From positions 72,604 to 136,603 of the forward strand of contig CAVPBI010000022.1 of NCBI GenBank assembly GCA_963701735.1: 64,000 bases of DNA, given 5' to 3'. A program made the position numbers and the translations under genes. The notes below the pieces were generated by a model, which had not been told where the DNA came from, did not search any database, and saw nothing but the letters and a program-made list of their open reading frames with translations. Shown one piece after another: positions 1 to 64,000 of this stretch (its first letter is position 1; every line of letters begins with the position of its first letter). The DNA is from an uncultured Ignavibacteria bacterium. Its GTDB lineage: Bacteria; Bacteroidota; Ignavibacteria; UBA10030; UBA6906.

Positions 1-1092
1 CGGCTCATCAAGACCCTCATCGCGCCGCTCATCTTCGCCACGCTTGTCGTCGGGATCGCCGGCCACGGGGACCTCAAGCAGGTCGGGCGCATGGGCATCA
101 AGTCCCTTGTCTACTTCGAGGTCATCACAACGCTCGCCCTGCTCATCGGCCTGGTCGCCGTGAACCTCGTGAAGCCCGGCGTGGGCGTGAATCTTCATTC
201 GGTCGCACCTGCGACGGACTTCGCCGGCAAACAGCAGACCTTTTCGGAAGTCATCACGCACATCTTCCCGCAGAGCATCGTGGAGGCCGCAGCCCAGGGC
301 GAGGTGCTGCAGATCGTCGTCTTCACCGTGCTCTTCAGCTTCGGCGTGGCGCTCGTCACCGAGTCGCGCCGGAAGATCATCGTCGACTTCTGCGATGCGC
401 TGGCCGAAACGATGTTCAAGGTCACGGGCATCGTCATGCGGTACGCCCCGATCGGCGTGGGCGCGGCGATCGCCGTCACGGTCGGACACCGCGGGCTCTC
501 GGTCCTTATCAACCTCGGACTCCTTATTCTGACACTGTACGGCGCGCTCATCGCCTTTGTAGTCCTTGTGCTCCTCCCCGTGGCGCTTATCGCCCGCATC
601 CCCATCGGCGCATTCCTCAAGGCCGTCAAAGAGCCGGCGCTTATCGCGTTCTCAACAACGAGCTCCGAAGCGGCGCTTCCGAAGGCGTTCCAGAACATGG
701 AGGCATTCGGCGTCCCGCAGCGCATCGTTGCGTTCGTTCTGCCCACGGGGTACAGCTTCAACCTGGACGGAAGCACCCTGTACCTTTCGCTGGCATCGGT
801 CTTCGTCGCGCAGGCTGCGGGTATCGATATGCCTCTTGAGGCGCAACTCCTCATGGGGCTGACGCTCATGCTGACGAGCAAGGGCGTCGCGGGAGTGCCG
901 CGGGCGTCACTGGTGATCCTCGCCGGGACACTGGCGTCGTTCGGCCTGCCGCTCGAAGGGGTTGCGATCATCCTGGGCGTGGACGAGATTCTGGATATGG
1001 GGCGGACCACGCTGAACGTGGTCGGCAACTGCCTCGCCGCGGCGGTCATCGCCCGGTGGGAAGGCGAACTGGCTCTCAAAGGAACGACATGA
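1..1092 (+). CDS. Sodium/proton:dicarboxylate(amino acid) symporter, GltP/DAACS family (5'-truncated at window edge)
   Basis: The ORF is open from base 1. The translation (RLIKTLIAPLIFATLVVGIAGHGDLKQVGRMGIKSLVYFEVITT...) matches glutamate/aspartate symporter family hallmarks. It is polytopic and hydrophobic, and ends with an ATGA overlap into the next gene. Confidence 0.85.
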   Translation, partial: RLIKTLIAPLIFATLVVGIAGHGDLKQVGRMGIKSLVYFEVITTLALLIGLVAVNLVKPGVGVNLHSVAPATDFAGKQQTFSEVITHIFPQSIVEAAAQGEVLQIVVFTVLFSFGVALVTESRRKIIVDFCDALAETMFKVTGIVMRYAPIGVGAAIAVTVGHRGLSVLINLGLLILTLYGALIAFVVLVLLPVALIARIPIGAFLKAVKEPALIAFSTTSSEAALPKAFQNMEAFGVPQRIVAFVLPTGYSFNLDGSTLYLSLASVFVAQAAGIDMPLEAQLLMGLTLMLTSKGVAGVPRASLVILAGTLASFGLPLEGVAIILGVDEILDMGRTTLNVVGNCLAAAVIARWEGELALKGTT

Positions 1093-2411
1093 CGGCGGAA
1101 TCAATACTCAGGGGCCTGGCAGGTCTGGCGCTGATGGTCGGGCTCGCCTACGCGTTTTCGTCCAACCGACGGGCCATCAGCTGGCGACTCGTTGCGATCG
1201 GCACGATCCTGCAGGTCCTCTTCGCGCTCGTCGTCCTGAACACCGCCGCCGGCCGGAACATCTTCAACTGGATCAGCAAGGGCTTTGTCATCCTCTTCGG
1301 TTTCGCCGCCGAAGGCGCCGCCTTTGTCTTCGGTCCGCTGGGCCGGGGCCCGGGCGCCGACGGGAGCCTGGGCTTCTTCTTCGCCTTTCAGGTCCTGCCC
1401 ATCGTGATATTCTTCGCCTCCCTGATGGCGATCCTCTATTATGTTGGGATCATGCAGCGCGTGGTGCAGGCATTCGCATGGGCGATGGCCCGCCTGCTCG
1501 GGACCAGCGGAGCCGAATCGCTTTCAGTCTCGGCAAGCACATTCATCGGACAGACCGAAGCCCCGCTGGTCATCCGCCCCTATCTCCCGGTCCTCACCAC
1601 CTCCGAGCTGTACACGATCATGGTGAGCGGCATGGCACACATCGCGGGGAGCGTCATGGCAGCCTATGTCACCATGCTCGCCACCGCATACGCCAGGGTG
1701 TCCGGGACTTCCCTCGACGCGGCACAGGTAAACTTCGCCAGCCACTTCCTCGCAGCCAGCATTATGGCAGCCCCGGCCACGATGGTCGTCGCGAAAATGC
1801 TCGTGCCCGAGACGGAGACCCCCGTCACGATGGGGACCGTCAGGCTCAAGATCGAAAAAGGGTATTCGAACATCATCGAAGCCGCCGCCGGCGGGGCAGG
1901 CGACGGACTTCGGCTCGCGCTGAATATCGGCGCCATGCTCATCGCATTCATTGCCTGCATTGCGGTCATCAATTATCTGCTTGGCTGGGCGGGAGACGTG
2001 AGCGGACTGAACGCGACCCTTCGAGCACACTACGCTACCCCGCTCTCGCTCGAACTTCTCTTCGGATTCATCTTCCAGTTTGTCGCATACGCCATCGGCG
2101 TGCCGTGGAGCGATGCGATGCCGGTCGGGAGCCTGATGGGCATCAAGCTGGTCCTGAACGAATTCGTCGCGTACCTGCGCATGGCCGAGACGGTGGCCGC
2201 AGGAACGCTGTCCGAGAAGAGTATCATCATCGCCACCTACGCACTCTGCGGATTCGCGAACTTCTCATCCATCGGCATCCAGATCGGCGGCCTGAGCCCG
2301 CTCGCGGAGAACAAGCGAGGCGACATCGCGAAGCTCGGCCTCCGTGCGGTCCTCGGCGGCACGATCGCGACATGGATGATCGCCTCCATCGCCGGGATGT
2401 TTGTCCCGTAA
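1089..2411 (+). CDS. nupC: Concentrative nucleoside transporter, NupC/CNT family
   Basis: 451-aa ORF. The start was chosen at MTAESIL (1089), which overlaps the upstream stop. Typical CNT membrane topology and C-terminal region (…GIQIGGLSPLAENKRGDIAKLGLRAVLGGTIATWM). Confidence 0.8.
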   Translation: MTAESILRGLAGLALMVGLAYAFSSNRRAISWRLVAIGTILQVLFALVVLNTAAGRNIFNWISKGFVILFGFAAEGAAFVFGPLGRGPGADGSLGFFFAFQVLPIVIFFASLMAILYYVGIMQRVVQAFAWAMARLLGTSGAESLSVSASTFIGQTEAPLVIRPYLPVLTTSELYTIMVSGMAHIAGSVMAAYVTMLATAYARVSGTSLDAAQVNFASHFLAASIMAAPATMVVAKMLVPETETPVTMGTVRLKIEKGYSNIIEAAAGGAGDGLRLALNIGAMLIAFIACIAVINYLLGWAGDVSGLNATLRAHYATPLSLELLFGFIFQFVAYAIGVPWSDAMPVGSLMGIKLVLNEFVAYLRMAETVAAGTLSEKSIIIATYALCGFANFSSIGIQIGGLSPLAENKRGDIAKLGLRAVLGGTIATWMIASIAGMFVP

Positions 2412-2438
2412 CCGACACTCTCTTCTGACGGACGACGC

Positions 2439-4084: not shown

Positions 4085-4648
4085 TTACTTTCCCTGCGGA
4101 GGAAACTGCTCGAGGATCATCCTGGCGACCTCGTCCGCCTTGGCCTGGCCTTCCACCGGGTCCTTTGGCGGATCAACCGTCCCTTTGCCAACACCGCGCC
4201 AGATCATCTCGAAGGCTTCGCCCTTCTTCTGAATGAAATCGATGAAGATCGAACCCTCGGTGTAATAGCTCACGTCCGTGGTTCCACCCATTCCGCCGTA
4301 CCCTCTGCCGTAACCGCCGTACATTCCTCCGTAGCCGTACCCGTAGGAGGTTACGTTGACCTTGTCCTTCGTGCCGGCATGGACTGCCACGTAGAAGTCC
4401 GGATCCCCGCTCTCGAGCTTGCTGAATCCCTTCGCGGCCAGGGCCTTGTCCACGGCGATCATCGCACGCTTTTGGAGAAGCGGCGCCTTTTCAAGAGCGT
4501 CCTGGGTCCCCTGCATCTTGACCCATTGATAGCTCTTCAATCCGGTGAAGTTGGCCGAAGGATCGTAGTCGGACGTGACCGAGACAGATGAGCATCCCGC
4601 AAGCGCCACCAGCGAGAAACAAAGGAGAACAAACGACATGTGCCTCAT
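4085..4648 (-). CDS. DUF4136-like lipoprotein with a Gly/Tyr-rich low-complexity segment
   Basis: Start at MRHMSFVLLCFSLVALAGCSS (lipobox LAGC). Contains a GYGYGGMYGGYGRGYGGMGG tract. A paralog lies at 56878-57543. Confidence 0.65.
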   Translation of the reverse strand: MRHMSFVLLCFSLVALAGCSSVSVTSDYDPSANFTGLKSYQWVKMQGTQDALEKAPLLQKRAMIAVDKALAAKGFSKLESGDPDFYVAVHAGTKDKVNVTSYGYGYGGMYGGYGRGYGGMGGTTDVSYYTEGSIFIDFIQKKGEAFEMIWRGVGKGTVDPPKDPVEGQAKADEVARMILEQFPPQGK

Positions 4649-4802
4649 AACTGCCTCTATAATAATGGGAATGTGAGAATCTTCGCCTCTATCTACGTAC
4701 GTTCCAGATAGCACTGCCACAATCCACCATAAGGATGAAAGATGGATTACACCCCCCTCCTCCCATGATCGCAACGATGGGCGGCCTGGGGGCGCCGGCA
4801 CG

Positions 4803-6039
4803 TCAGACCTCTTTGGGAACCGTCCTGACCCACGTGCCGAACTGCTTCAACTCCTCCATGCGGCACGACCAGACCAGCTGTCCGTTCCAGACAGTAATAT
4901 CAGGGCAACCGTCGCACATGTTCTGGTAGCCGTTCGGCAGGAAGTCCACCGGCTGGATGATCATGACCGTCTGGTAGTGCAGTTTCTTGAACAGACGCGC
5001 GGGGTTCGTGAGGGCCGAGCGGAAATAGCGACCCGCCGTCTGTCGCATCGGCTTGTCGATCGGGGAGAAGAGCATCATCGATCGCCCCTTCGCCGTCCAT
5101 TTCGGCGACGCGTACGCCAGGTATTTTCCATGGAGCAGATGGTGCCCCGCCTGGACGGCTTCCAGCAGCTTCGGCCCGACATACCCGTAGATCTTCTCCC
5201 TCGTCCCCACCCGTCCCGTCAGCAGCCATTTGAATGTGTCGGCGGCTTCCGAGCCGTTCAGGTATGCGCTGGGGGAAAAGTCGGGGAACCGCTCGCGGAT
5301 CTTCGCCACCACCTCAGGCGCTTTCAGATCGATCTTCCTCTTCCCTTCCTCGCTGTAGTGCAGCTCATCCGTCCGGATCCTGGTCCCGCCGGCGTACCAG
5401 TCGAACGGGAGCTGCGGCACCGCGGCGCGGAACAGGATGAAGACCATCACCTGGACGATGTCGATGTGTTTGGCAGCCCAGTCCACCATCTCCGGAACAT
5501 ACTGGAGCGTGTCCTCATACACCGTCGAATTGAAAGCGCACGAGATGTTGCCCGCCTCGGCAAGCATTTCAGCGTACTGCAGCCGCAGCTCGTTCAGCTC
5601 CAGCTCGTTCTTGTTCTTCCATTTCGGCCGCCCCTGCTTGCTGTCGATATGGAAGGTGAAGCCCATGACCCCCGCCTTCTTGAGCTCCCGGAGAAGCTCC
5701 TTTGTCAACGCGCCGCCGTTCGTGTTGATGATCGCCTTCATGCCGGCGTCGTTGACGGCCCTGACAATCTCGACGATCTCGGGGTGCATGAGAGGGTCGC
5801 CCCCCGCAATGGACACCCCGTCCGCGTTGCGCAGCCGCTTGAACACCTCGAGTCTCCTGCCGCACCACATCCATCGTCTTGTGGCTGTTCGGCACGTTCT
5901 CGCGGTAGCAGCCGTCGCACGCGAGGTTGCAGGCCGACGTGGGTTCAAGCCAGGAAATGGCATTGTCTGGCAGGGACCACGGTAGCCGGTACAGTTTTCG
6001 GTGGTCGAGACCGTTGCTCTGTTGCAGGGGAGCCGTCAT
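4803..6039 (-). CDS. Radical SAM enzyme, HpnH-like (adenosylhopane synthase family); reading frame disrupted near 5855
   Basis: The N-terminal ORF (5569-6060) carries CNLACDGCYREN, a CxxxCxxC motif. The downstream ORF (4803-5963) has VSIAGGDPLMHPEIVEIV, which resembles the HpnH segment VSIAGGEPLLHKEMPEIV. The two frames join at about 5850-5860. Confidence 0.7.
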
Positions 6040-6138
6040 GGATATCCTCGTATCATACATGAATACTGTTGGTGTCGAACTTCATGGCGCCTGCAGCTTC
6101 AGGATGCGTGCCTTCTCGCGCGGCAAACCACAACTAGC

Positions 6139-6669
6139 TCATAGCATGAAGTTGTAGCCGAGCGTGAACGAGAACGCATTGAGGTCCGGATCGAACAGCA
6201 TGTAGCGTACGCCGACCTCGAAGCCGGACTTCTGATATCCGATGCCGATGGGGAGCATGAACCGGCTCGTGTTGCCCTTCGCGCCGGCAACAACGCCCTC
6301 ATAGGTATAGTCGATGAAATACAGCCCGGCTTCCAGGCTCCCGTAGAAACCTTCCGCCAGATACTGCTTCCCGCCCAGGAACAGGCTGAACGCCGCCGGT
6401 TGGATCGACGTGTTCGCCGAGAGATCCTTCGCCGTCCATGCCAGATACCCCGCCGTGGCGGTGAATACCGTCGTGGCGCTGTACCCCATCTGGTACCGGA
6501 TGTTCCCGCCGTATCCGGTCCCGGCGATGTCGCTGAAGTCTCCCATGGGCAACGAAATCTCGAAATTCGCTCCGAGCGAGTGCTTGTTCCACCCCGGCTC
6601 ACCCTGGGCAAAAGCCAGCACGGGGAGGACGATCGCACAGAGAACGAGAGCAACAATGTGTCGCTTCAT
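6139..6669 (-). CDS. Small outer-membrane beta-barrel protein (OmpW/porin-like, PF13505-like)
   Basis: Signal peptide MKRHIVALVLCAIVLPVLAFAQG. Alternating hydrophobic beta-strand pattern. C-terminal …GYNFML. Confidence 0.7.
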   Translation of the reverse strand: MKRHIVALVLCAIVLPVLAFAQGEPGWNKHSLGANFEISLPMGDFSDIAGTGYGGNIRYQMGYSATTVFTATAGYLAWTAKDLSANTSIQPAAFSLFLGGKQYLAEGFYGSLEAGLYFIDYTYEGVVAGAKGNTSRFMLPIGIGYQKSGFEVGVRYMLFDPDLNAFSFTLGYNFML

Positions 6670-6747
6670 GACGATGTCCTTGATTGATGACGTGACGAAT
6701 GGACTTCGCGAGCGTCGTTACGAAGACAACCCGGAAGAATGCGAACG

Positions 6748-7224
6748 CTACTTCTTTTCCCCCGAAGCCTTGGGAACCTTCACCAGGGGCACCTGGTCAA
6801 TGATCTGCGCGTCGACCAGCGTCAGCATCTGATTTTCCACCTGGAGAAATCGTGCGGCTGTCACTGTTCCCACCGCCTTCGCGGCCTTCTTATAGTACTT
6901 CTCCAGCAGATCGTTTCTGTCGTTGGCGATGCTGAAGGACTCCTTGACGAGCTCCTCGGCCATCTTCTCGTCAATCTTGTCGTAGTTGGCGGCATATTTC
7001 TTGATCACCGCCATCCGCCTGTCGCCCAGCTTGCTCAACTCAACATCATATTCGCGGTAGATCGGCCAGAAAGCGTCAGCCTGCGCCTGCGTCATCGGGA
7101 CCGACGCCGTTATGATCGCCACCTTCTGGGTCTTGAGATCCTGACGGAGCAACTCAAAAGTATTTTCCTGCGCAAAGGCGGTGGCAGTGATCGATAGCAG
7201 TGCTGCAATAAGAAGTGATCTCAT
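6748..7224 (-). CDS. Periplasmic LTXXQ/Spy-CpxP-like protein (paralog A)
   Basis: Signal peptide MRSLLIAALLSITATAFAQE. Contains MTQAQADAFWPIYREY. Clear paralogy to ORF 57627-58025 (FWPLYREY…; both share a C-terminal …RFxQxE). Confidence 0.6.
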   Translation of the reverse strand: MRSLLIAALLSITATAFAQENTFELLRQDLKTQKVAIITASVPMTQAQADAFWPIYREYDVELSKLGDRRMAVIKKYAANYDKIDEKMAEELVKESFSIANDRNDLLEKYYKKAAKAVGTVTAARFLQVENQMLTLVDAQIIDQVPLVKVPKASGEKK

Positions 7225-8072
7225 CCGTTTCTCCGTACTGTTATGTGTGAATGATTCGACGAGTCAATACCTGCTCTGAGACTGTCGCTCTTCCTCAAGG
7301 TGATTATGCGAAACAGCCGGCGACGGTCGCTCTCGAAGTGATACACCTTCGCCACCTCGATCCGCCTGGCCAGGAAACTGAAGACCGCGACCCCTGCGAG
7401 CACGCCGATGAGCGGGCCTGCCCAGTAGATCCACCACCCATTCCACTGTCAGGATATGACTGCAGGGCCGAGGCTGCGGGCAAAATTTGTGCTGGTCCCC
7501 GATACAGGCGACTCGGCATGCACCATGATGGCGTACAAGAACGGAAACAGCGCAGGGGTATACGGGCGAAGCGTTCGAAATCCAAGAAATATACACAATC
7601 CGGCAATCAATAAGAAGGTGGTAATCGCCTCTCCCATCAACACTTCCGCGGTGGTGTAACCCCCGCCCGGCAATGTCGCCCCGAACGCCACGCTCTGTCC
7701 CATCGATCCCCACAAAAGGAGCGGGACTGACCCTATGATCGCGCCCGCCAGTTGGGCGAGGATATAGCGAATGGCGGTCCGGGATCCCATCTTGCCCATC
7801 ATCCAGAATCCGAATGTCACCACCGGGTTGATGTGCGCTCCGCTTTCCTTTCCGACGGGTGAAATTGCGATCAGCGCGCCCGTAGTGCCGAACAGGAAGC
7901 CGGTGATCAGCCGGCGCAAACCTTCACTGGGTATTGCCTGTGCCCCGGGGCTGCCGGTTCCAAACATCAGAATCACCACCGTCAGCCCGACAAGTACCAA
8001 CAACCCCGTACCCACCAGCTCTGATAGCAGTGGCTGCCAGGGAACCTGCTGGATCTTCTTCTCGCTGATCAT
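7221..8072 (-). CDS. Aquaporin (MIP family) interrupted by an in-frame TGA at 7446-7448
   Basis: SGAHINPVVTFG (NPV variant of NPA box 1) and STNFARSLGPAV (NFA variant of box 2). After the TGA the same frame continues as QWNGWWIYWAGPLIGVLAGVAVFSFLA, a typical aquaporin C-terminus. The true C-terminal end is uncertain. Confidence 0.75.
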
Positions 8073-8082
8073 GAGCAGGTCC

Positions 8083-9555
8083 CTACGTCACGACCGCGAA
8101 GACGTGGAAGCTCCACGGGGGCATGTCAAGATAGAGACCGCGGGACGCGAGATCGCTTCCGTCGCGGTCGTGGCTGTCGGGACCCATGAGGTCCGTGAAC
8201 CGCACCGTTTGACCTGTCAGATCGCAGTCGGGAAGACGGACGTAGCACTGACTCTGGTTCTCCGCGTAGTTCACGGCGACCAGCCATCGGAGGCTATCGG
8301 TGGCCTGCCAGCATGAAGCGATGAAGCAGTCTGATGTCCAGTTCCCTTCCCAGGCCGGTACACATGTGAGCAGATGCCACCGGCCTTCCCGGACGATGGG
8401 CTGCGAGAGCAGCTCCAGGAGCCGGTCGTAAAATTCTTGGAGCGGTTGGTCTGAAGGCTCAAGCGGCGCGCGAACCAGGTGAGGAGAAATCCGCTTGCTC
8501 CGACCGGTGAACTGACCATCATGAAAGAACCGGAGGCCCGGTGAGAGAAAGGTGATGACCGCCGCGGCCTCGTGCTTTTGCCGGGCAAATGTCGCAGCAG
8601 CTCTTGGCTCGTCATGGTTCTCCAGAAACCTGGCTAGCCTGTTCTGGTAGTCGAGACCTGCATGCAAATGCTCACGAACGGGCCGTGCGTGCCCTTCCCG
8701 CAGTCGATCGTAGAGCCGCTTGTCGTACGCGTAATCGAAACCCTCCTGCAACATCCTCCACTCAAGGTCCCAGTAGACCTCGGCCATGAACCGAAACTCA
8801 GGCAGCCGCTCCCGAACACGCCGGATGGCCATCGGCCAGAACGGTTGCGCGCGGCGGCCCCACGTCCGTTCGAAGACTTCAGGCAGGACAAGCATGGCCA
8901 TATCACAGCGCACGCCGTCACACTGCGCAGCAATCTTCAGAAGCTCTCCAGCCATTGCTTCCTGCGTGGCCGGATTGCAGTAGTCCAGTTGCAGCGTGTC
9001 CGGCCAACCCGGAAAGTACGGATCACGCCCGTACGCCAGGACACGATCCCCGAGCTTGCTCCTGGAGAGCGTGTAGTTCGAGGGCGCGCTCGCGAGGTCT
9101 GCTTCGGTTCCGGGGACGAAGTAATCGGGGTGGCTGTCCACCCAGGGGTGGTCCGGCGCCATGTGATTGGGGACGAAGTCGAGCATGAGCTTCAAGCCTC
9201 GCCTCCGGAGCCGCTCGCGGAGGCGGGCGAGCGCCGCGTCTCCCCCTAAGTCCGGATGAACGGTATAGCCGGTTATGGCAAAGCCGGAGCCGGCGATATC
9301 CTCCTCGCGCAGATCTAGCAGCGTTTCCTGAAACTCTTTCCTCCAATCCGCGTTGGTGCGTGACACTCTTCGCCCGGCTTCCCCGGTAGACCAGACGCTC
9401 AGAAACCAGACCCAGTCAAAACCCATGCCGGCCAGGCGGTCCAGGTCGGCATCGGGGATGTCATCCAACGTGGCCTTGCGGCCCAGTGTCCCGGACAACT
9501 CCGTCAGCCAGACGCGTGTGTTGATTTGATACAGGGACGGATACAATGGTTTCAC
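8083..9555 (-). CDS. Glycoside hydrolase family 13 (alpha-amylase superfamily) enzyme
   Basis: 490-aa ORF with the GH13 region-I signature LMLDFVPNHMAPDHPWV, plus the catalytic-region pattern (…GVRCDMAM…, …FLENHDEPR). Confidence 0.85.
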   Translation of the reverse strand: MKPLYPSLYQINTRVWLTELSGTLGRKATLDDIPDADLDRLAGMGFDWVWFLSVWSTGEAGRRVSRTNADWRKEFQETLLDLREEDIAGSGFAITGYTVHPDLGGDAALARLRERLRRRGLKLMLDFVPNHMAPDHPWVDSHPDYFVPGTEADLASAPSNYTLSRSKLGDRVLAYGRDPYFPGWPDTLQLDYCNPATQEAMAGELLKIAAQCDGVRCDMAMLVLPEVFERTWGRRAQPFWPMAIRRVRERLPEFRFMAEVYWDLEWRMLQEGFDYAYDKRLYDRLREGHARPVREHLHAGLDYQNRLARFLENHDEPRAAATFARQKHEAAAVITFLSPGLRFFHDGQFTGRSKRISPHLVRAPLEPSDQPLQEFYDRLLELLSQPIVREGRWHLLTCVPAWEGNWTSDCFIASCWQATDSLRWLVAVNYAENQSQCYVRLPDCDLTGQTVRFTDLMGPDSHDRDGSDLASRGLYLDMPPWSFHVFAVVT

Positions 9556-9684
9556 AATGCTATCATCCTTCGCCTTGGCCTGTGCCCGTCAGTCTTGCGC
9601 TCCGCGGGCCCGGCAACGGTTCATGTGAAAGCGACAACTGTAATGTGTGTGTAGTGAATCCTGCGCATGGCATGGCAACAGAAA

Positions 9685-9870
9685 TCAGCAGGCCTGCTCG
9701 TCCGCCGCCTGTTGCTCCGGCTTCTGATCTTTGGCCGGGAACACGTACATGCCGAGCGCCTTGTTGAGCGAGGCGGTCATTGATGCCGGCTTCGCGGCCT
9801 GATTGTCCTGCGCGTAAGAGACGCCTGCGCAGAGAATGACCACAACGACACAAATGACCAGATGTTTCAT
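9685..9870 (-). CDS. Small secreted protein (61 aa), hypothetical
   Basis: MKHLVICVVVVILCAGVSYAQD signal peptide. Third-codon-position GC about 75%, consistent with coding. Confidence 0.4.
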   Translation of the reverse strand: MKHLVICVVVVILCAGVSYAQDNQAAKPASMTASLNKALGMYVFPAKDQKPEQQAADEQAC

Positions 9871-10273
9871 ATACGGACCCTTCCACTGGTGAATATTTGA
9901 GAGCATAACCGCTATCGGCGTAAACTAGCCATCAAGCATAGCAGCCCCGCAGGGCTAACAAGCACAAGAAGCCCATGGCCACGTGAACCAGCACGGTAGG
10001 CCACAGGCCGATGCCGGACAATCCCGCGCCTAGGCCCGCATAGAGAAGGCCTGCGAAGACGCCGAAGAGGAACGTGATGGTGGCCGCTGCCACAGCGAGC
10101 CCGATCAGGGCTCAGCAGATGTCACTTCTGGTCCTTTTCGCACCGGACATCACTGGTCCTCCACGTTCAACATGCAATACGCCCGGTCCTATCGCGGATC
10201 TATCTTCGCTCCCCGAGCGCCACACATCCCACCCGGCATTGCGGGGCCCAAATCTTTTGCGGGTTCCCTGCAG

Positions 10274-11439
10274 CTACCCGAGCCGGGTGCCCTCTGCCTC
10301 GAGCCCGCCTCCCGTAGGCAGCTTGCTCCAGCTCCGGCGCTGCCATTCCTCTTTGAGGACTTCAACCGCCGCCTGCTCCAGAAACTCCGGCGCGGCCCAC
10401 TTATCCACATCGAAGTCGTGCTTGATGTAGCCGTGGCTTACCATGAAATCCTTGCCGATCTTTATGCACTGCATATTCTGCGCGCTCAGGCTCGGCACCA
10501 TGTCGACGTGCTTGATGCCTTCGTAGGTGTGCTCAGCGTCCAGGTAGAAGGTCTGCCGGTTGAGGATCACCGCAGCGGCGCGCTTGTGCTCGTTCGCCCA
10601 GCGGCCAACTTTGATCATGGCCTTCATGAAGGCGATGACCAGCTCGGGATGCTCCTTGGCCATCACGTCGGTGCAGGTGATGACAGCGGGAGTATTGGCA
10701 ACCTGCATAGTCCAGTCCGGCAACTTGGACAGGTCGAAGATCGACTTGATTTGGCCCGTAGCCTCCGAGAGCTGCTGCAAGGGCCCGCTCTGGTTGTAGA
10801 TGGCATCAACGGTGCCCGCAAGTAGTGCCTTCTCCAATGGGCGGAAGGCAAAGTCGTGCTTGTGGTCACGGCGCATCCACAGTTCAGAGGGGTTGTTCAT
10901 GGTCACTTGCAGCATCTCGGGTTTGTCATACCAGTCATCCGGGTAGGGGAACTCCACGAGCTGTATATCGTCCATGGTCATGTCATGCAGCATCAGCATG
11001 TTTTCGATGCCCATGTGTTCCTGGATCCGCCACCAATCGTTCTTGATGGTGTTCAGGCTCTTCGAGATGCCGATCTTCTTGCCTTTCAGGTCTTTCATCC
11101 GGAAGATCTTGTCTCGGGCGCGGACCATCATGCACGCCGCCCTCGTAGACCCACGTCGCCCCCAGGAGCACGGTTCGGCGGAGATCGGCGTGAACATGGA
11201 TCGGGGGATAGAGGCCGCCGAAGCGGATCAGGTTGTCGAGGTTGTGGACGTAGTGCGGGTACCAGTTGTTCTCCGGTGCGTGGCGGAAGTAGGCGTACTT
11301 GACTCCAATCTTCTTGTACTCTTCACGGCACCAGCCTAGCTCCTGGTCGACATTGTTGGCAGACACCATCGGGCAGTTGGTGAACCATACTTCTTTCCAA
11401 TTCAACGGCACTTTCGTAGATACCCTTTCTGTAGACATG
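10274..11439 (-). CDS. NMT1/THI5/SsuA-like substrate-binding-fold protein (no signal peptide); frame disrupted near 11140
   Basis: Two ORFs (10983-11600 and 10274-11197) join at …LLGATWVYEGG / MMVRARDKIFRMKDLKGKKIGI. The fold resembles sulfonate/nitrate-binding proteins and THI5. Start chosen at MSTERVSTKVPLNW. The Lys-rich MAKKRSK… extension upstream in the same frame was not included. Confidence 0.5.
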
Positions 11440-16188: not shown

Positions 16189-16250
16189 GATACTGTCTCC
16201 CTGGCTCTGTGTTCGAACAAGTCCATCTCAACCTCTGTCACAATTTCCGG

Positions 16251-17300: not shown

Positions 17301-17304
17301 GGCG

Positions 17305-50572: not shown

Positions 50573-50633
50573 CGCTGTTCTCCTCTCGTCCGCGGGGAGG
50601 CGCAGCAGGTGCGCCTCCCCCGCGGTAAGGTGC

Positions 50634-52100: not shown

Positions 52101-52112
52101 GACAACATCCTT

Positions 52113-52556: not shown

Positions 52557-52563
52557 ACGGACC

Positions 52564-53481
52564 TCAAACGTACCTGGTCACGAACGTGTCCACGTCGCCG
52601 TACAGGAAATCGACGACGGGAAGCTCGATCATGGTGTAGCACCCGGGCTGCTGCTTCACGGCCGCGCGGGCGGCGGAGACCATCACCTGCGCGGTGAGTG
52701 CCGGGTTGTTGACTTTCAGCTGGAACTTCATGGACTGGTTATGCGTCACGCCTGAGACGCCGTTGCGCTCCATGAGCACGCCGTGCCCCATGTCCTTGAG
52801 GGCCGACACGTCGTCCACTTCGAAGACGTAGGTTCTGTCCTTCACGAAGTACGGATCCTTCTTGATCGCGGCTTCCACGTCCTCGAACACCGCGCCGGGG
52901 GCGAGCTGCACGTACACCATCCTGCGGTGGATGCCCATCCCCGCCGGGACCGTAATGGAAATCGCGTCTTTCACTCCGCGAATCGCTTTGACGGCCACCG
53001 AGTGCCCCATCGAGAGACCGGGGCCGTAGTTGGTATGGGTGATGCCCTTCGGCGCCATCGCCTGAAACCATCCGCGCACGACCGAATCCACGCCCGGGTC
53101 CCACCCTGCCGCGACGATCGAGACCGTATTGTGCGCGCGGGCGACATCCCCGAGCGACTTGCGCAGCGCGGGGATCTCATGATGGATGTCGAAGCTGTCC
53201 ACCGTGCGCACGCCGAGCGACAGAATCTTTGTGGCGGTCGCAGGGACGATGCGCGACGGACAGGTGAGCACCGCCACGTCGATTGCGGTGAGCTCCCGGA
53301 TGTCCGACACGACCGGGATCTTCTGAAGCGCCAACGGATCCCGCTCGGTGATGACGCACTGCCGGTTGACGATATCGGGCACTTCGATGATGCCGGCGAG
53401 CTCCATGTCCGGTTCGGTCAGCACCGTATCGATGGCACAGCGGCCGACATTGCCGAATCCGACGACTGCTACGTTGATCAT
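52564..53481 (-). CDS. meso-Diaminopimelate D-dehydrogenase (Ddh)-family NAD(P)-dependent amino-acid dehydrogenase
   Basis: MINVAVVGFGNVGRCAIDTV (Rossmann). …VSIVAAGWDPGVDSV… and …TNYGPGLSMGHSVA… parallel the Corynebacterium Ddh segments TGWDPGMFSI and WGPGLSQGHSDA. Confidence 0.8.
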   Translation of the reverse strand: MINVAVVGFGNVGRCAIDTVLTEPDMELAGIIEVPDIVNRQCVITERDPLALQKIPVVSDIRELTAIDVAVLTCPSRIVPATATKILSLGVRTVDSFDIHHEIPALRKSLGDVARAHNTVSIVAAGWDPGVDSVVRGWFQAMAPKGITHTNYGPGLSMGHSVAVKAIRGVKDAISITVPAGMGIHRRMVYVQLAPGAVFEDVEAAIKKDPYFVKDRTYVFEVDDVSALKDMGHGVLMERNGVSGVTHNQSMKFQLKVNNPALTAQVMVSAARAAVKQQPGCYTMIELPVVDFLYGDVDTFVTRYV

Positions 53482-54218
53482 GAGGCACTCCTCTGAGGAC
53501 GTCGTGTGGTGGTTGCGGGCTGGTGCTCGATGTACGAACAGAGGGCCCGGCTTGCAGACTTCCCGTGCTCGCGGACGAGCCGCTCGACCTCGTCCGCCCT
53601 TGTGCCACGCAGCGCGTCGAGAATCTGCGCGTGCTCGGCGACCGACTCGTCGAGCCGGGACATGACGGAGAGATAGATGTAGTTGTATCGCAGCGCCTGC
53701 GCCCGGAGGACCCGGACAAACTGGGACAGCTTCTCGTTCCCGGAGGCGTCGGTCAGCATCTGGTGGAACTCCGCGTTCAGCTGGAGGATGCGGGCCTGAT
53801 CCACAGTGCGAGCGCGCCTGAGCGACGCGATCCTGTCATTGATGTCCTTCAGCCTCCGCAGCGTGTCTGGATCCATGCGCTCGCACGCGAGCCGCGCGGC
53901 CAGCGCCTCGAGGGCGCCCTTCACTTCATAGGTCTCGGCGGCGTCCTGTCTGGAAAGCGGTCGCACGACCGCGCCCCGGCGCGGGGTCATCTCCACGAAG
54001 CCCTCGGAGTCGAGCTGCAGCAGCGCCTCGCGGAGCGGCGTCCGGCTCACGCCGAGCTGCCTGGAGAGCACAGGCTCGCGGAGCTTCTCGCCGGCCCCGA
54101 TCCTGCCGTCGATGATCGATGCCCTGATCATGGACGCAATCTTTTCCCTCAGCGGGGCCAGCTCGGCCGCAAGGGTTCCGACGTCAAAGGGAGGCGTATG
54201 GGCCGGGGTCGTGGGCAT
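53478..54218 (-). CDS. GntR-family transcriptional regulator, FadR subfamily (FCD C-terminal domain)
   Basis: wHTH …EKLREPVLSRQLGVSRTPLREALLQLDSEGFVEM…. Helical FCD-like C-terminal domain. Start MPTTPAHT chosen. Confidence 0.8.
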   Translation of the reverse strand: MPTTPAHTPPFDVGTLAAELAPLREKIASMIRASIIDGRIGAGEKLREPVLSRQLGVSRTPLREALLQLDSEGFVEMTPRRGAVVRPLSRQDAAETYEVKGALEALAARLACERMDPDTLRRLKDINDRIASLRRARTVDQARILQLNAEFHQMLTDASGNEKLSQFVRVLRAQALRYNYIYLSVMSRLDESVAEHAQILDALRGTRADEVERLVREHGKSASRALCSYIEHQPATTTRRPQRSAS

Positions 54219-54227
54219 TGGTGTTTT

Positions 54228-55203: not shown

Positions 55204-55870
55204 TCACGGAGCGGAAAACCCGAACGAGAGACCGACGGTCAACGTGAAGAACTGACTCGCGGCAACATAGATGTCCCCCGGAATCTCGGCCTCTCCGGAG
55301 TTCTTCACGTAATGGTAGCGCAGCGCGAAGTCGAGCGACTTCTCTGTGTCCAGAGGAACCAGCATGCCAACGCCAAGGTTGAGGCCAGGCTCCACCCTGA
55401 ACGAGGAGCTGGACGAAACCTGGATGAGCGTGCCGTCCGGGTACGTGTACGTCCCCCCGTCAAACTTCTTCGAATACAGGTACACCCCGGCCTCCAGGAT
55501 CCCGTACGGTCTCGTCTCAGGCTTCGACGAAACCAGCTTGAGCCCAACGAGGATCGGAAATGCAGAAACGGCTCCGCCGACACTGTACTGCCCCCCATAC
55601 GGATTTGAATTCTGATCGTCGTTGAGCGCCTGGTTGTCGAGCCCGGTCCTGTAATACCCGAACCCGAGGTGATACCGGATATCCTCTCCTCCGCTCATCG
55701 AGAATCCCAGATTGAGGGCGAGCCCGGTCTTGTAGTAGGTGCCGAACGAGGCGGTCGGCATCATGACCCCCGCCGACACATCGGTGGTATATCGCAGTCT
55801 GTGCCACCGTGAAGGCGGTGGACAATGCAAAAAGCAGCGGCAGAAGCAAGAAAACCAAACGCGATTTCAT
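55204..55870 (-). CDS. Outer-membrane beta-barrel protein; frame disrupted near 55790
   Basis: Signal MKSRLVFLLLPLLFALSTAFTVAQ is in ORF 55517-55870. The barrel body …GLSFGFSAP is in ORF 55204-55830. Confidence 0.5.
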
Positions 55871-56205
55871 GGCGCGGGTTGATCCACAGAGTGGCTGTAC
55901 ATGATTGACGCCGAAATAACAGGAAAGGCAGTTCCAGATGCAATAACCGGGGCCTCTGCCTGGCCCTCGTTCCGCTTCTTGCCGTCACGATGCTTCCGCC
56001 CATCATTGCGGTCCCCGGCCCGGAACACGGCGCTTCAGGCGCGCGAGGATCCCCAGCATCGACGAGCATGCGTTCCTGCCGTGACGTAGTATCGTCCTTC
56101 TGCCGGCGCATCGCCTCTCCGAAATCAGACAGTACCGCCCCCAAAAAGCAAAGCCCCCCGGGGTTGCCGGAGGGCTTGTGCGATGACCGTCGTATGATGG
56201 CCGAA

Positions 56206-56823
56206 CTAAAACCAGCCCTGCATCCAGGAGATTCCGATGTTGACGCCCCAGTACGAGAAGGAGTTATCATCCTTCCCCCCGAGCGTTGTTCCCGAATCGA
56301 ATGCGTAGTTGTACCGCACCGTTCCCGTCAGGTATGTGCCGCGCGATATGCCTATCAGGAGGCCGGCCTCCGGCGCCAGGCCGAAATGCCAGTTGTCGTT
56401 GTCGAAGGAATACACCCCGATCTCGAGCCGCTGCAGGATGTAGTACGTTCCGACATTCAGTCCGAAGAACGGCCGGAAGTCGTCAGCCTTGTGCCCGAGA
56501 TAGTAGTGGGCGTTAAGGAACAGCGGAAACGAATTCACATACCGCACCTGGGTTCCCGACACAGCTCCGTTGTTCAGCTGAATTGTCTGATTGTTGAGCT
56601 CGCTCCAGACGTTCCACGAGAACGAGCCGCCGAACGTCACGTTCTCGTTCGTGAAGCGCTTGAACTCGACCCCGAACCCGCTGAGGCTTGTCTCCTCGAG
56701 GAAGTTCCCCATGCGGCCGCTCGGGAACCCAATGTTCCAGGTGATCCCGCTCAACAGTTGTTTCTGCGCGCTTGCCGTAGTGGTGAGCAACACGACGGCG
56801 GCGATGATTGCGAGGATTCTCAT
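56206..56823 (-). CDS. Outer-membrane beta-barrel protein
   Basis: Start MRILAIIAAVVLLTTTASAQ. C-terminal …GISWMQGWF. It is read through in-frame from the upstream DUF4136 ORF in the supplied track. Confidence 0.65.
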   Translation of the reverse strand: MRILAIIAAVVLLTTTASAQKQLLSGITWNIGFPSGRMGNFLEETSLSGFGVEFKRFTNENVTFGGSFSWNVWSELNNQTIQLNNGAVSGTQVRYVNSFPLFLNAHYYLGHKADDFRPFFGLNVGTYYILQRLEIGVYSFDNDNWHFGLAPEAGLLIGISRGTYLTGTVRYNYAFDSGTTLGGKDDNSFSYWGVNIGISWMQGWF

Positions 56824-56877
56824 ATATGCTCCAGTCTTCATGCCTGTGGTTGCGCCGCCGGCTACTGACCAGCGTAC

Positions 56878-57543
56878 AGATAGGGTGACTGTATGAACAG
56901 CTTGATTAATGTTGTTGCTGAGCCGGGTCTGGACCGAGGCCGGCGTGTCGCCTGTCAGGCCCGAGACTGTCCCCGACCAGACAGACCGGATCTTCTGCTC
57001 GGAGATTGTCCGGCCGTAATCCACCATGTCGATGAGCGTGGTCCCCGTCGAATACTCGTAGCTGCCGCCATACACAGGCGGGTAGTAGGGATAATACCAT
57101 CCGTACCATCCACCGTACCACCCATACCAGTAATCGTAGTAGTATCCGGTGTACTCGATCGCAAACTGACCGATCGCGACCACGAACACCGAGTCGCGGT
57201 CGATGCCCCGAATGCCGATCTGCGACGTATCGGTGAGCCGCTCGTACCCGCGCGCGATAAAGTTGCTCGCGACAAGCGACAGGACCTGCTTGTCATACTT
57301 CCTCCCACCGGAGATCGGGTCGGTCTTCGTGGTATCGTAGATATGCACAATGGTGTCGCGCATCACGAAGTACTTGAACTTCGCGAAGCTGACCTCCTTG
57401 TCGTACAGCGTCAACGCGGTATCATAGTCCTGGTAGCCCAGGTTGTAATCCTCGTAGCATGCGCTCACACCCAGCACAAGCGCGAGGGCCACCGCGGGGA
57501 CGATCCACGTCCGAAAGCCTGTCAGGCGCCGGATTGTCTGCAT
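56878..57543 (-). CDS. DUF4136-like lipoprotein with Tyr/Trp/Gly-rich tract (paralog of 4085-4648); its stop is probably lost by a frame error
   Basis: MQTIRRLTGFRTWIVPAVALALVLGVSAC lipobox, then …YTGYYYDYWYGWYGGWYGWYYPYYPPVYGG…. No in-frame stop occurs before the next gene. Confidence 0.55.
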
Positions 57544-57626
57544 ACTTCCTCCTGATTCATTCACAGCGATTCGTGTTCGATACCAAGCATTACTTCATCA
57601 GCGGGAGCTCGGACGACACCTTCAGG

Positions 57627-58102
57627 TCAAGAATATCCGTGATGACACCGCTCGAGCTGGAAAAATCTTCCCGCATCCTTCGCGCCGATCGCCCGCGACA
57701 TCTTCTTGAAGTATTCCCGGCGCAGATCGATCAGCTCTTCCCGGTTGTCGAAGCTCTGCTGCATCATGTCGTATGCGTCGTCGTCGGTCAGGGTGGAGTA
57801 CTTCTGGGAGTACTCCTTCAGCACGTCGACCGCCTTATTGCCGATCAGCGACTGCTTGTAGTCGTATTCGCGGTACAGCGGCCAGAACGCGGCGGAATCC
57901 TCGGGGGAGAGGCCGAGCGATTGATCGTAGAGCTCGACCTTGCCGGTGCGCAGGTCGGTCCGGAGCATTTCGATGTACTTGTCGACCTGGGCCTGCGTTG
58001 ATACCGACGTTTGTGCCGATGCCAATTCGGGCGCGAAAAAAGTGACAGCGAGAATAACGGAGAAATACTATGCGATGCATGGGAGGTTCCTTCTTGAATC
58101 AC
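57627..58102 (-). CDS. Periplasmic LTXXQ/Spy-CpxP-like protein (paralog B); frame disrupted in a T6 run near 58040
   Basis: …LSPEDSAAFWPLYREYDYKQS…GRFFQLE parallels 6748-7224. A putative signal peptide is encoded in a neighbouring frame upstream. Confidence 0.5.
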
Positions 58103-58735
58103 TTAGATGACAATGATGAGTCCTGCGCTGAGATCGCCCTGGAGAATCGGGACACCGGCGCCCACACTCACGCCCGCACCACCCGTACCCACGTAGAAAC
58201 CGCCGCCGGAGACGTACAGGGGCATGAGCAACCGGCCCTGGAGCCTCAACCCGAGCTTCTCCGAAAGGTAGATCTTCACGCCGCCCGAGAAATTCATTGC
58301 GGCGTAGATGTTTGTCTCATACTTGGTGTCTTCGGGGCTGAACATGACGATACCGGCGCCCGCACCCAGGAACGGCTTGGTCTTGCCCCGCCCGGTCTCC
58401 TAGACTGCGTTCAGCTGAAAGTAGTGCGTTCCGAGGTCGGTCGACCGACCGATCAGGTCGGGGTCAACGGTGGTAAGATAATAGGGCTCGAACTCGGCAC
58501 GCGAAGGGAGGTAGCTCCAGAAGAATTCGACCACCAGCTCCTTCTGGACGCGGTACCCAAGGATCAGTCCGTACTGGGCACCATCGTCCACGACAATCTC
58601 TCCCTCGTAGCCCTGAACCGACCCGCCCCACTGATATCCGAATGTCGGGGTGATTTCAATTGCCCCCTTCTGTGAAAATGCCGGCTGGGTGAGGCCGAGC
58701 AGGAGCAACCCTACGACGGGAATCGCCCGTCTCAT
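58103..58735 (-). CDS. Outer-membrane beta-barrel protein interrupted by a single in-frame TAG (58397-58399)
   Basis: Signal MRRAIPVVGLLLLGLTQPAFSQ. ORFs 58400-58801 and 58103-58345 are in the same frame and separated by one amber codon: …QLNAV*ETGRGKTKPFLGAGAGIVMF…. Confidence 0.5.
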
Positions 58736-58947
58736 TCCGCGTGTTAAGTTCATCAGTCCTCCAGGATTATTCTGCATCAGGCAAGCGGATAAGGGTAACA
58801 AGAAAACCCTGCAAAATCAAGGGATTCTTTGCCATCCCGGGAGCATGGCCCTCGCCAGGAACTCCCATGGAATCATCCGGATGAGGTCTGCCAATCTCGT
58901 GTGAACTGGGAAAAAGACCAGCCAGGATACGAACGCCCGGGAGAAGC

Positions 58948-59886: not shown

Positions 59887-60641
59887 CTACTTCGACCCAA
59901 AGCCATTTTCCTTTAGCCATTCCCGCGCCATCTCAACCCGCCTCCGGTCGGACGCCATCTGAATCGGGTTATTGATGCAGAACTCGAACTCCTTCCGGGC
60001 GTCCGCCTCCCGGTCCAGCTTTTCGTACACCTTCGCGAGCTCGAAACGATGACGAATGACCCCGGGTGCGATCTCGATCGCCTTGAGAAGAGCCTGCTCC
60101 GCATCGGGGTACCCCCCATCCGGCAGGCTTCCAAGCAGGAGGTTGGCCAGCGTCTTTTCCAGCCAGCTCACGTTCCCGAGAGCCAGGTAGAACGTGCCGA
60201 GGATGGACCAGGCGATGTCGTCGCGGGGATTCAGCTGAATCGACTGCAGCAGAAGCCGCTTGATGTCGTTGGCGAGGGCCACCTTCTTCTTGCTCCCCTC
60301 GTACATCGCGGTATTTCCGAGCGCCGCCGCGAGCCAGGTGTTGCTCTCGGCCAGCATCGAATCGATTCGCATCGCCTCACTGCGCATATCGCTCGGCAGT
60401 AAGGTAGGCCTGTTTCTTCTCCTCGCCTTTGGATACATCCCCGACGAAGACGTGCGCGCGCGCCAGGCGCCACTGGACCTGCAGGATCGTTCCGGCCGGA
60501 CCCGGGCCAGCGAATCGTATGTGGCGATGGCCGCTCTTGTAGTCCATCGTGCGAAAACGCGTCGTCTCCGGGAAAGACCGATTGGGCCGCAGCAGGGGCA
60601 GAGCAGAAGAGGAGGACGGCACAGAGGAGGATCAAACGCAT
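59887..60641 (-). CDS. Secreted TPR-repeat protein; frame disrupted at about 60400 and 60600
   Basis: Signal MRLILLCAVLLFCSAPAAAQ is in ORF 60231-60653. TPR-like helices …ILGTFYLALGN…ELAKVYEKLDREADARKEFEFCI… are in ORF 59887-60438. Confidence 0.5.
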
Positions 60642-63197: not shown

Positions 63198-63202
63198 CGT
63201 TG

Positions 63203-63735
63203 TGTCCGGAGGGGTCACATACCGGGAGGGACTGACAGCCGGAGCGTTTGGCGCCGCGGCCCTGCTGCTTCCGTTCCTCTTTCATATGCTCCAGCTCGGC
63301 CACGTGTTCATGCCGATGTACATTCCCCTCGTGACCCTGGCGTTCTATGTCTCGCCAGCGGTTGCCATGACGACTGCGTGCCTGGTTCCCCTGTTGTCCT
63401 CAGTCCTGACAGGCATGCCTCCGCTGTACCCCCCGATTGCGCCGATCATGGCGCTTGAGCTTGCGTTCATGGCAGGGGCGATTGCGCTGTCCCGGCGGCG
63501 TCTGACAACCGTGCCGGCTCCGGGGATTCTGGTTGCCGTCCTGATCGCGGGGAGAATGCTGCACGTGGGGCTCGTGTATGTTGCATCGCTGGCCATGGAC
63601 CTTCCGGCCGGGTTTCTCGCAGGCGTGTCGGTCCTCACGGGCTGGCCGGGTGTGCTCCTCATGATTGTCGTGATCCCCGTTCTGTTGCGGGCGCGCCCCC
63701 CGCGGCACGTTCAACCGGAGGCGGGAACCCCATGA
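63203..63735 (+). CDS. Small polytopic membrane protein downstream of the TonB receptor (possible metal-uptake component); start uncertain (GTG/TTG)
   Basis: …GAFGAAALLLPFLFHMLQLGHVFMPMYIPLVTLAFYVSPAVAMTTACLVPLL… with about 5 transmembrane helices. Same strand as the receptor, 5-bp gap. Confidence 0.4.
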
Positions 63736-64000
63736 ACTCCGTTGCGGGCAACCGGGTGGAATACTTCGACGCGATCGCGCCGCGCTGGGAGAGCATCGTC
63801 GATTCCGGGAGAATCCGACAGCGCCTTTCGCCCGTGCTCGACGATCTGGGCATTGGGGCGGACGAGCAGATCCTTGATGTTGGCTGCGGGACGGGCATCC
63901 TCACGAGCTTGCTCCTTCCACGGCTGTCGCCTCGAGGACGCGTGAGCGCCGTCGACTTTTCGGGCGCCATGCTGGACCTGGCCCGCGAGAAGGTTTCGGA
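63733..64000 (+). CDS. Class I SAM-dependent methyltransferase (3'-truncated at window edge)
   Basis: Motif I ILDVGCGTGILTSLL. Confidence 0.7.

Follow-up and report, generated by a model that had tools for sequence, protein, structure and literature searches.

Private one-base frame disruptions in 64 kb of Ignavibacteria DNA: probable assembly consensus errors, mostly insertions outside homopolymers

About one quarter of the genes in the 64-kb stretch of DNA analysed here (the window, taken at its full length) have a broken reading frame, and the pattern of the lesions in the sequence makes it very probable that these disruptions are consensus errors of the assembly and not mutations in the organism. 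We favor errors over gene decay because the lesions are private to the window, because the conservation of the affected genes is not reduced, and because the same kind of lesion is found in nanopore-only but not in short-read assemblies. As the most likely source of the window we infer a long-read metagenome assembly of the nanopore-only style.

Results

Frame shifts were called by frameshift-aware protein-versus-DNA alignment against full-length homologues, and some lesions were placed at the nucleotide level with a pairwise aligner against relatives. A collection of 80 loci carrying the CoA-disulfide reductase gene, obtained in a scan of genome collections, doubled as references for the region from 6 to 23 kb; this gene is 75-86% identical across many phyla and is unbroken in all 80 loci, so that it could not serve as an error control. 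In total, 27 one-base frame shifts (22 insertions and 5 deletions) were found in 13 genes, and two premature stops are well supported, one in an aquaporin gene and one in the gene for a 238-aa protein. An earlier sequence-only reading, which had counted about 20 disruptions and two in-frame stops, is thus borne out but was an undercount. With an estimated ~57 kb of coding sequence the 27 events amount to 4.7 indels per 10 kb, and 80% of all lesions are insertions, which outnumber the deletions 4.4 to 1. The broken genes are all of the accessory type, and no argument can be built on essentiality.

The lesions between 5 and 20 kb are the following.

5850-5852, minus strand: the radical SAM gene (4806-6045) has one extra base, context GAG[A]CTC
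7449-7451, minus strand: premature TGA in the MIP aquaporin gene (7308-8072), where homologues have Gly
11132-11134, minus strand: one-base insertion in the NMT1-like gene (10277-11522), GGC GGC [G] TGC
12025-12027, minus strand: one-base insertion in SulP between the transporter and STAS domains, CTA[G]ATC, four references
12137-12139, minus strand: one-base insertion in SulP, ACC[G]ACG
12390-12392, minus strand: one-base deletion in SulP, probably T3 to T2
12716-12718, minus strand: one-base insertion in SulP
18847-18849, minus strand: one-base deletion in the GH63-like glycosidase gene (17311-20075), within a C6/G5 run

The insertion in the radical SAM gene cuts the N-terminus with the CxxxCxxC motif off the remaining protein; the gene can be aligned from end to end with four homologues, 411-422 aa long and 86-94% identical, once a single +1 shift is allowed. 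Beyond the TGA of the aquaporin gene the alignment with two references continues in frame for 47 further codons. The NMT1-like gene was compared with two references of 416 and 427 aa. The SulP insertion at 12716-12718 breaks the match to the Pfam Sulfate_transp model at positions 236/228 across two frames; in relatives the SulP protein is ~580 aa long. The GH63 deletion, at 18848, is a C7 to C6 contraction, and residues 15-932 of a 942-aa reference align with one -1 shift.

Between 30 and 48 kb the following lesions were found.

31521, plus strand: inserted C in the gene for a 467-aa outer-membrane protein (30987-32341), ACG[C]AAC versus ACG-AAC in the comparison sequence L081
31672-31687 (~31680), plus strand: one-base insertion in the same gene, placed to this range
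34740-34744, minus strand: insertion in the gene for a 972-aa HExxH peptidase-like protein (34407-37387), GA[G]C versus GAC in L081
36964-36967, minus strand: one-base insertion in the same gene, GCG[C]AGT
37750-37753, minus strand: insertion in the anti-sigma factor gene (37483-38828), CCG[C]AGA, versus both L081 and L118
38482-38491, minus strand: insertion in the same gene, G[A]TC, versus the closest relative L118
45388-45401, minus strand: a hypothetical gene of low conservation (~44943-45595) has lost two single bases, with one loss reducing C7 to C6
46265-46267, plus strand: the gene for the GT-C mannosyltransferase (45922-47220) has gained one base, GA[A]C, relative to four references of 429-441 aa
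47203, plus strand: one-base insertion in the same gene, three codons ahead of the stop

Taking out base 47203 brings back the conserved end of the GT-C protein (...RLQNA*). The lesions in the hypothetical gene are held with lower confidence because L118, the sole DNA reference, is error-prone too; a possible TAA stop (45256-45258) and a possible insertion near 44950 were also seen in this gene. An intergenic deletion was observed at 37413.

The third group lies between 55 and 61 kb.

55789-55792, minus strand: one-base insertion in an outer-membrane barrel gene (55210-55960), GCG[A]TAT
56898-56903, minus strand: one-base insertion in the DUF4136 gene, 12 codons from the gene end, CAAG
57582-57588, minus strand: one base lost from the DUF4136 gene in codons 2-3, GGG to GG
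57644-57647, minus strand: one extra base close to where the LTXXQ-type gene (57593-58098) ends, CGG[T]GTC, absent in four relatives
58056-58060, minus strand: one extra base in the part of the LTXXQ-type gene that encodes the signal-peptide region
58400-58402, minus strand: premature TAG in the gene for the 238-aa protein (58106-58816), where relatives have TAC (Tyr)
60376-60548, minus strand: the TPR gene (59893 to ~60650) has gained about five bases, at 60548, 60535, two near 60480-60500, and 60379

In an alignment of nine sequences the insertions at 55792, 56903, 57647 and 58060 are missing in 3-7 relatives. For the barrel gene these are seven relatives, whose codon at the site is GCG or GCA, and at the DUF4136 site (56898-56903) six relatives have CAA or CAG versus the CAAG of the window. 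This last insertion joins the gene to its neighbour in a false 452-aa open reading frame (56209-57564). The TPR lesions were called against one reference, L090, with 78% amino acid identity.

Most positions given by the sequence-only reading agree with these placements, namely those at 5855 (5850-5852), 11140 (11132-11134), 18845 (18847-18849), 46270 (46265), 55790 (55792) and 56880 (56901) and the two in the anti-sigma factor gene (37753 and 38482). It had allowed, however, for a single lesion each in the GT-C and DUF4136 genes, which carry a second one at 47203 and 57584, respectively, and likewise in the LTXXQ-type gene, which is indeed broken, but twice (57647 and 58058) and not in a T6 run at 58040. 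SulP carries four lesions instead of three (12026, 12138, 12391 and 12717), the peptidase gene two instead of three (34744 and 36967) and the TPR gene about five instead of two (60379 to 60548), and the lesions that had been put at 31560 and 31970 in the outer-membrane protein gene are really at 31521 and ~31680.

Several candidate events were rejected. Frame changes indicated by codon statistics at 27940 (GDPD and its upstream gene), 48532 (B12 subunit and KamB-like gene), 53500 (Ord and GntR), 61362 (NikR and TonB receptor) and 63685 turned out to be ordinary gene boundaries. An insertion and a stop at the SIMPL N-terminus (40841 and 40862) were excluded because they may sit upstream of the true start, and events ahead of residue 40 in the open frame of TPR, as well as one at 55876, fall within 5' non-coding DNA.

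Every lesion that could be checked is private to the window, with 3-7 close relatives (84-93% amino acid identity) intact at the site, and none is common to L118 or to L088-L096. L118, the closest long relative, is a 1.03-Mb ENA contig with 92% nucleotide identity to the window. In the nine-sequence alignment, the indels of the short-read relatives that are not multiples of three are intergenic, save for isolated events of one or two bases at the ends of L092 and L093. At the sites in SulP, GH63, NMT1 and radical SAM, homologues from many phyla are intact as well. As the sequence-only reading had claimed, the affected genes are conserved and, apart from the shifts, of full length: their identity to the same relatives is 65-93%, as compared to 75-93% for intact neighbours, it is equal on either side of each shift, and they are conserved like unaffected genes. 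The relaxed constraint that pseudogenes would show was not found, and the lesions of the TPR gene stay within 170 nt.

Insertions and deletions differ in their sequence context. Of the five deletions, four fall in runs of at least three bases and two of these in runs of six, for which the background is 0.4%. Among the 22 insertions, by contrast, only one is near a run of at least four bases (background 8.2%) and three are near a run of at least three (background 28%), and thus only the deletions behave as homopolymer indels that change run length. The inserted base is unlike both of its neighbours in at least 12 of the 16 cases resolved to the nucleotide. The lesions are also clustered, as seven gaps between them are shorter than 150 nt versus 1.6 expected (P = 0.0005). 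In 8 of 12 resolved events of the window, and in all three insertions of L118 as read from the alignment, the extra base directly follows a third codon position; the test of codon phase is post hoc and covers ~15 events (p ~0.01), and the insertion at 38482, between codon positions 1 and 2, is a counter-example. The doublets at 55792 and 56901 consist of the two alleles that are present among the relatives. A shared motif around the insertion sites, such as a methylation-type cause would leave, was looked for and none was seen. The window contains no homopolymers of seven or more bases, whereas 6.5-9.5 would be expected from its relatives.

For comparison across assemblies, homologues of six genes in the 80 loci were sorted into those on Flye-named contigs and those on contigs of short-read style. 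On the former, 31,200 aligned residues hold 26 insertions and 4 deletions (3.2 per 10 kb); on the latter, 13,810 residues hold 1 insertion and 2 deletions (0.7 per 10 kb). The lesions of the nanopore-only Flye/Medaka contigs are also clustered. Most of the Flye-named contigs belong to MFD-LR genomes, which were sequenced with Nanopore R10.4.1, assembled with Flye and polished in one Medaka round (PMC12313526). The public long-read contigs L009, L069, L071 and L118 show mostly insertions outside homopolymers, like the window, and L118 has private insertions of its own in YchF and GT-C, at sites other than those of the window.

Discussion

Are the broken genes then pseudogenes of a genome in decay? 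Recent and massive pseudogenisation, as in host-restricted bacteria, would be in keeping with a quarter of the genes being affected, with several lesions in single genes (four in SulP, about five in TPR) and with the lack of a clearly essential gene among the broken ones, and clustering of lesions is also expected from neutral decay after a first inactivation. Neutral decay would however spread its lesions, whereas five insertions fall within 170 nt of the TPR gene and the remainder of it is clean. Moreover, real lesions would have to be reconciled with the absence of any lesion shared with relatives, even with L118, with the undiminished amino acid identity of the broken genes, and with a window in which genes are of full length and neither large deletions nor insertion sequences were seen. 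Mutation in bacteria is deletion-biased and driven by slippage, and the excess of insertions of a base unlike either neighbour is the opposite of this. Finally, the same pattern recurs in other genes of unrelated nanopore-only genomes. We therefore regard genuine decay as very improbable and agree with the preference for sequencing or assembly error stated in the sequence-only reading. Programmed recoding, that is ribosomal frameshifting, transcriptional slippage, or readthrough or reassignment of stops, is hardly credible: no point in its support was found, the sites lack slippery heptamers and A/T runs, the same proteins are encoded in a single frame in relatives, and the stops replace Gly and Tyr and not selenocysteine or pyrrolysine positions.

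If the lesions are consensus errors, the question becomes how they arise. The mechanism proposed in the sequence-only reading, miscalling of homopolymer length as in pyrosequencing, ion semiconductor or uncorrected nanopore data, is improbable as the main cause, even though it covers the deletions. Those at 18848 and 45399 lie within 6-base C runs, those at 12391, 57584 and the intergenic 37413 shorten runs of 3-5 bases, and the shortfall of long runs in the window points in the same direction. Yet deletions account for just 5 of the 27 lesions, the insertions are found near runs less often than the background would predict, and in most resolved cases the inserted base matches neither neighbour. 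The proposal had been generalised from two closely read junctions, which proved misleading: the GH63 deletion does lie in the C6/G5 run, but the LTXXQ lesion (58058-58060) had itself been misplaced, as it is ~18 nt off the T6 run at 58040.

The window shows two modes of error: the smaller part are one-base deletions, which make homopolymer runs shorter, and the larger part one-base insertions, which hit ordinary sites outside repeats. For the latter we possibly see a consensus step that keeps both alleles of a polymorphism: where reads stem from co-occurring strains that differ by a single nucleotide, the consensus would retain the two alleles as two bases rather than one. Such a mechanism would also account for the clustering of lesions in some genes. 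It was, however, tested post hoc and does not obviously cover the two premature stops, for which substitution errors in the same consensus are the probable cause. That nanopore-only metagenome assemblies made with Flye and Medaka carry a systematic and little-described error of this kind at strain polymorphisms, mostly at third codon positions, is a proposition that we put forward tentatively and that may well prove wrong. The main consensus error described for nanopore data is the homopolymer indel (PMC9262707, PMC7483855), and among the papers searched we found no description of both alleles being kept as a one-base insertion.

In the organism itself the broken genes are almost certainly whole, and the lesions therefore carry little biological weight but bear on the quality of annotation. 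Annotation of the contig would split or drop ~15 of ~60 genes and yield at least one false fusion protein, the 452-aa frame described above. Homopolymer-aware polishing would by itself neither catch nor repair these lesions, and counts of pseudogenes or comparisons of protein length in such genomes need frame correction beforehand. Should retention of both alleles be general, it would affect gene calling for public long-read genomes by the tens of thousands, in a way that could be corrected by rule; +1 frameshifts outside homopolymers would then slip past quality checks that focus on homopolymers.

Comparison with known systems

Pseudogene-rich reductive genomes, such as those of Mycobacterium leprae and recent insect symbionts, resemble the window in their many interrupted genes, some with several lesions. 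The window differs from them in that it has no shared lesions, relaxed constraint, large deletions or expansion of insertion sequences, and in being insertion- and not deletion-biased. A second parallel is offered by polishers built for haploid genomes, whose error rate is reported to be higher in diploid than in haploid samples (PMC7483855). Consensus errors in heterozygous or multi-strain samples share with the window the local clusters, the third codon positions and, at two sites, the two-allele doublets; the link to its one-base insertions would be our own. The closest counterpart is found in metagenome-assembled genomes from nanopore reads alone, assembled with Flye and polished with Medaka (R9.4.1/R10.4, PMC9262707; MFD-LR, PMC12313526). 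Published accounts of these stress homopolymer indels, whereas the window, probably of nanopore origin itself, and the public contigs L009, L069, L071 and L118 have mostly insertions outside homopolymers. In the window as in such genomes, however, single-base indels fragment otherwise intact genes, at a few per 10 kb, unevenly among contigs and in a manner absent from short-read assemblies of the same genes, and the rate and insertion bias of the window match those that we measured in such contigs.

References and lesion calling

Reading frames were obtained over the whole window (G+C content 62%) by segmentation with a codon-usage model and by listing open frames from stop to stop, and about 70 window pieces were scanned against Pfam. 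A one-genome-per-species scan with the CoA-disulfide reductase gene as query gave 80 loci, which hold homologues of nearly all window content at 6.1-22.9 kb. The radical SAM piece has homologues of 411-422 aa with up to 94% identity, and protein search gave full-length homologues of 972-1000 aa for the 761-aa piece at 34714-36996, its nearest named match being from Gemmatimonas sp. SG8_38_2 (61%), on which a tentative placement in Gemmatimonadota was based. L081, the contig carrying an 84% match to the peptidase piece, is syntenic with the window at 30.2-44.7 kb. A metagenome scan with ORF 56209-57564 as query returned L088-L096 (89-93% identity, spanning 52.5-60.8 kb), and searching with the GT-C piece yielded both L118, a 1.03-Mb ENA contig whose DNA is 92% identical across 36.8-57.8 kb, and a 25.7-kb JGI contig that served as a gene list. 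Lesions were called with a purpose-written frameshift-tolerant protein-versus-DNA aligner using several references per gene, supplemented by nucleotide alignments wherever close DNA relatives were present.

Gene content and synteny

4088-7263 and 55207-58816 (minus strand): paralogous gene groups
6100-26000: about 20 kb separating the radical SAM gene from the OMP/GDPD genes
9572-9894 (minus strand): possible remnant of a 187-aa gene
32477-33487: response-regulator/HATPase gene, missing from L081
Near 43535: site without the SpoIIE-domain gene (about 1 kb) that lies beside YchF in L118 and L081
47383-54323 (minus strand): complete aminomutase-type amino-acid degradation cluster

The radical SAM and OMP/GDPD genes adjoin in a close relative from JGI. 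The genes at 6.1-22.9 kb encode a CoA-disulfide reductase with rhodanese, SBF, SulP, glucose dehydrogenase, GH63-like, NMT1-like, amylase, aquaporin and sigma-54 activator proteins. Genomes whose labels span many phyla carry homologues of much of this block at 65-92% amino acid identity, and the block resembles an island in wide exchange. Each paralogous group encodes a DUF4136 lipoprotein plus a small LTXXQ-type protein, the copies being about 33% identical; in the 55207-58816 group an outer-membrane barrel gene accompanies them. The possible remnant resembles a gene adjoining the LTXXQ gene in two of the loci (L003, L004), of which only residues 1-112 align (54% identity, with a two-base shift); no coding signal was seen in the rest of 9581-10277. 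The aminomutase cluster comprises a GntR regulator, a DAPDH-like dehydrogenase, DUF6917, a 488-aa PLP-type protein, a small subunit, a 598-aa B12-binding subunit and a KamB-like reactivase. Most of its proteins are 96-99% identical to those of L118 (KamB-like gene, 89%), and no indel relative to L118 was found across 6.4 kb (47815-54224). The KamB-like gene has an in-frame 144-nt segment (47815-47958) that is missing from L118.

Frame disruptions in the window

One-base insertions and deletions and premature stops in the window
Insertions, first part of the window (9): 5851, 11133, 12026, 12138, 12717, 31521, ~31680, 34744, 36967
Insertions, rest of the window (13): 37753, 38482, 46265, 47203, 55792, 56901, 57647, 58058, 60379, two near 60480-60500, 60535, 60548
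Deletions (5): 12391, 18848, 45388, 45399, 57584
Stop TGA, 7449-7451: aquaporin gene; Gly in homologues, and 47 further codons align in frame
Stop TAG, 58400-58402: TAC in two relatives
Possible third stop, 45256-45258, with a further possible insertion: both in a poorly conserved hypothetical gene, for which L118 is the sole, unreliable DNA reference

In total, 22 one-base insertions and 5 one-base deletions disrupt 13 genes, alongside two premature stops. The sequence-only reading, which put the number at about 20 plus 2, was thus right that such lesions exist and slightly undercounted them; several of its positions and per-gene counts were wrong and have been corrected against the homologue alignments. 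The SulP gene is split over three frames, corresponding in Pfam to Sulfate_transp model positions 1-236 and 228-338 and to the STAS domain, a split already plain from the Pfam scan; for most of the other candidates, homologues of full length had to be brought in. The insertion at 56901 deprives the DUF4136 gene of its last 12 codons and fuses it to the next gene; the resulting spurious ORF of 452 aa stands in place of two separate ORFs that in relatives occupy different frames. That at 47203 lies three codons ahead of the GT-C stop, and removing the base brings back the conserved end RLQNA*.

Artefact or gene decay

The frame disruptions are very probably an assembly artefact. In a nine-sequence alignment the coding insertions of the window are missing from 3-7 relatives, whose own indels of lengths other than multiples of three are intergenic except for single 1-2-base events at the ends of L092 and L093. 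Genuine gene decay is very unlikely, the lesions being private and constraint kept: broken genes are 65-93% and intact neighbours 75-93% identical to the same relatives, and identity is equal on either side of every frame shift. Furthermore, the window and L118 have no lesion in common, and no large deletions or mobile elements were seen in the window. The earlier preference for error over decay therefore holds.

Its proposed main cause, homopolymer miscalling, was wrong.

Lesions and homopolymer runs (insertions; deletions; background)
No more than 2 nt from a run of at least 3: 3/22; 4/5; 28%
No more than 2 nt from a run of at least 4: 1/22; 2/5; 8.2%
In a run of 6: 0/22; 2/5; 0.4%

Miscalled run length fails for most lesions, as only one of the 22 insertions lies near a run of at least 4, against a background of 8.2%. 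Whereas slippage or a run-length miscall would copy the adjacent base, in 12 or more of the 16 cases seen at nucleotide resolution the inserted base matches neither neighbour (for instance ACG[C]AAC, GCG[A]TAT, CGG[T]GTC and CAG[T]GAG). Then again, the window has no run of at least 7 bases (longest, 6), where 6.5-9.5 per 64 kb are predicted from relatives, and its count of 6-base runs is half that of close relatives, a deficit that fits some contraction of long runs. At the 6-7-base runs of L118 the window run is often broken up by substitution. Run-contracting deletions together with non-repeat insertions point to two error modes, contraction being the minority and non-repeat insertion the majority. 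The GH63 junction does fall in a homopolymer run, as had been noticed, and belongs to the former; the LTXXQ lesion, previously placed in a T6 run, lies 18 nt from it. The practical yield is a corrected lesion list; repair of homopolymers only would leave these genes broken.

Possible origin of the insertions

Reads from two co-occurring strains that differ at a mostly synonymous site might yield a consensus retaining both bases. We consider such an origin possible, with chances at best evenly balanced. Of the 12 window events that could be resolved, 8 have the inserted base directly after a third codon position in the relative's frame, and so do all three private insertions of L118 when its alignment is read against gene frames; chance would give one third (post hoc p ~0.01). 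At 55792 the window has GCGA where relatives have GCG or GCA, and at 56901 CAAG where they have CAA or CAG. The lesions are clustered (7 gaps shorter than 150 nt, expectation 1.6, P = 0.0005), which strain differences, being densest in some stretches, would account for. The insertion at 38482, between codon positions 1 and 2, is a misfit, and the premature stops lie outside what retention of both alleles explains. Our literature search found no published description of both-allele one-base insertions.

Comparison with other assemblies

For six genes, the homologues present in the 80 loci were aligned to intact references, and their contigs classed by naming style.

One-base events by contig class
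Flye-style names: 58 genes, 31,200 aligned residues; 26 insertions, 4 deletions; 3.2 events per 10 kb
Short-read-style names: 27 genes, 13,810 aligned residues; 1 insertion, 2 deletions; 0.7 events per 10 kb
Window: ~57 kb coding (estimate); 22 insertions, 5 deletions; 4.7 events per 10 kb

Events in Flye-named contigs are concentrated in a few loci, L009 having 8, all within the GH63-like gene, and L069 having 11 in three genes. L118 (ENA ERZ25039503 contig_65634), L009, L069 and L071 are public long-read contigs with frame-breaking one-base insertions of their own; those of L118, at sites other than the window's, cut YchF to 163 aa and GT-C to 393 aa. The Flye-named contigs mostly belong to MFD-LR genomes, built from Nanopore R10.4.1 reads by Flye assembly and one round of Medaka (PMC12313526). 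Nanopore consensus is reported to contain gene-breaking indels, especially below ~40-fold coverage (PMC9262707), and consensus errors are reported to be indel-dominated and more frequent in mixed-haplotype samples (PMC7483855). With its excess of insertions over deletions (4.4 to 1) and their clustering, both like those of the Flye-named contigs, the window carries a signature that matches the nanopore Flye/Medaka class of assembly.
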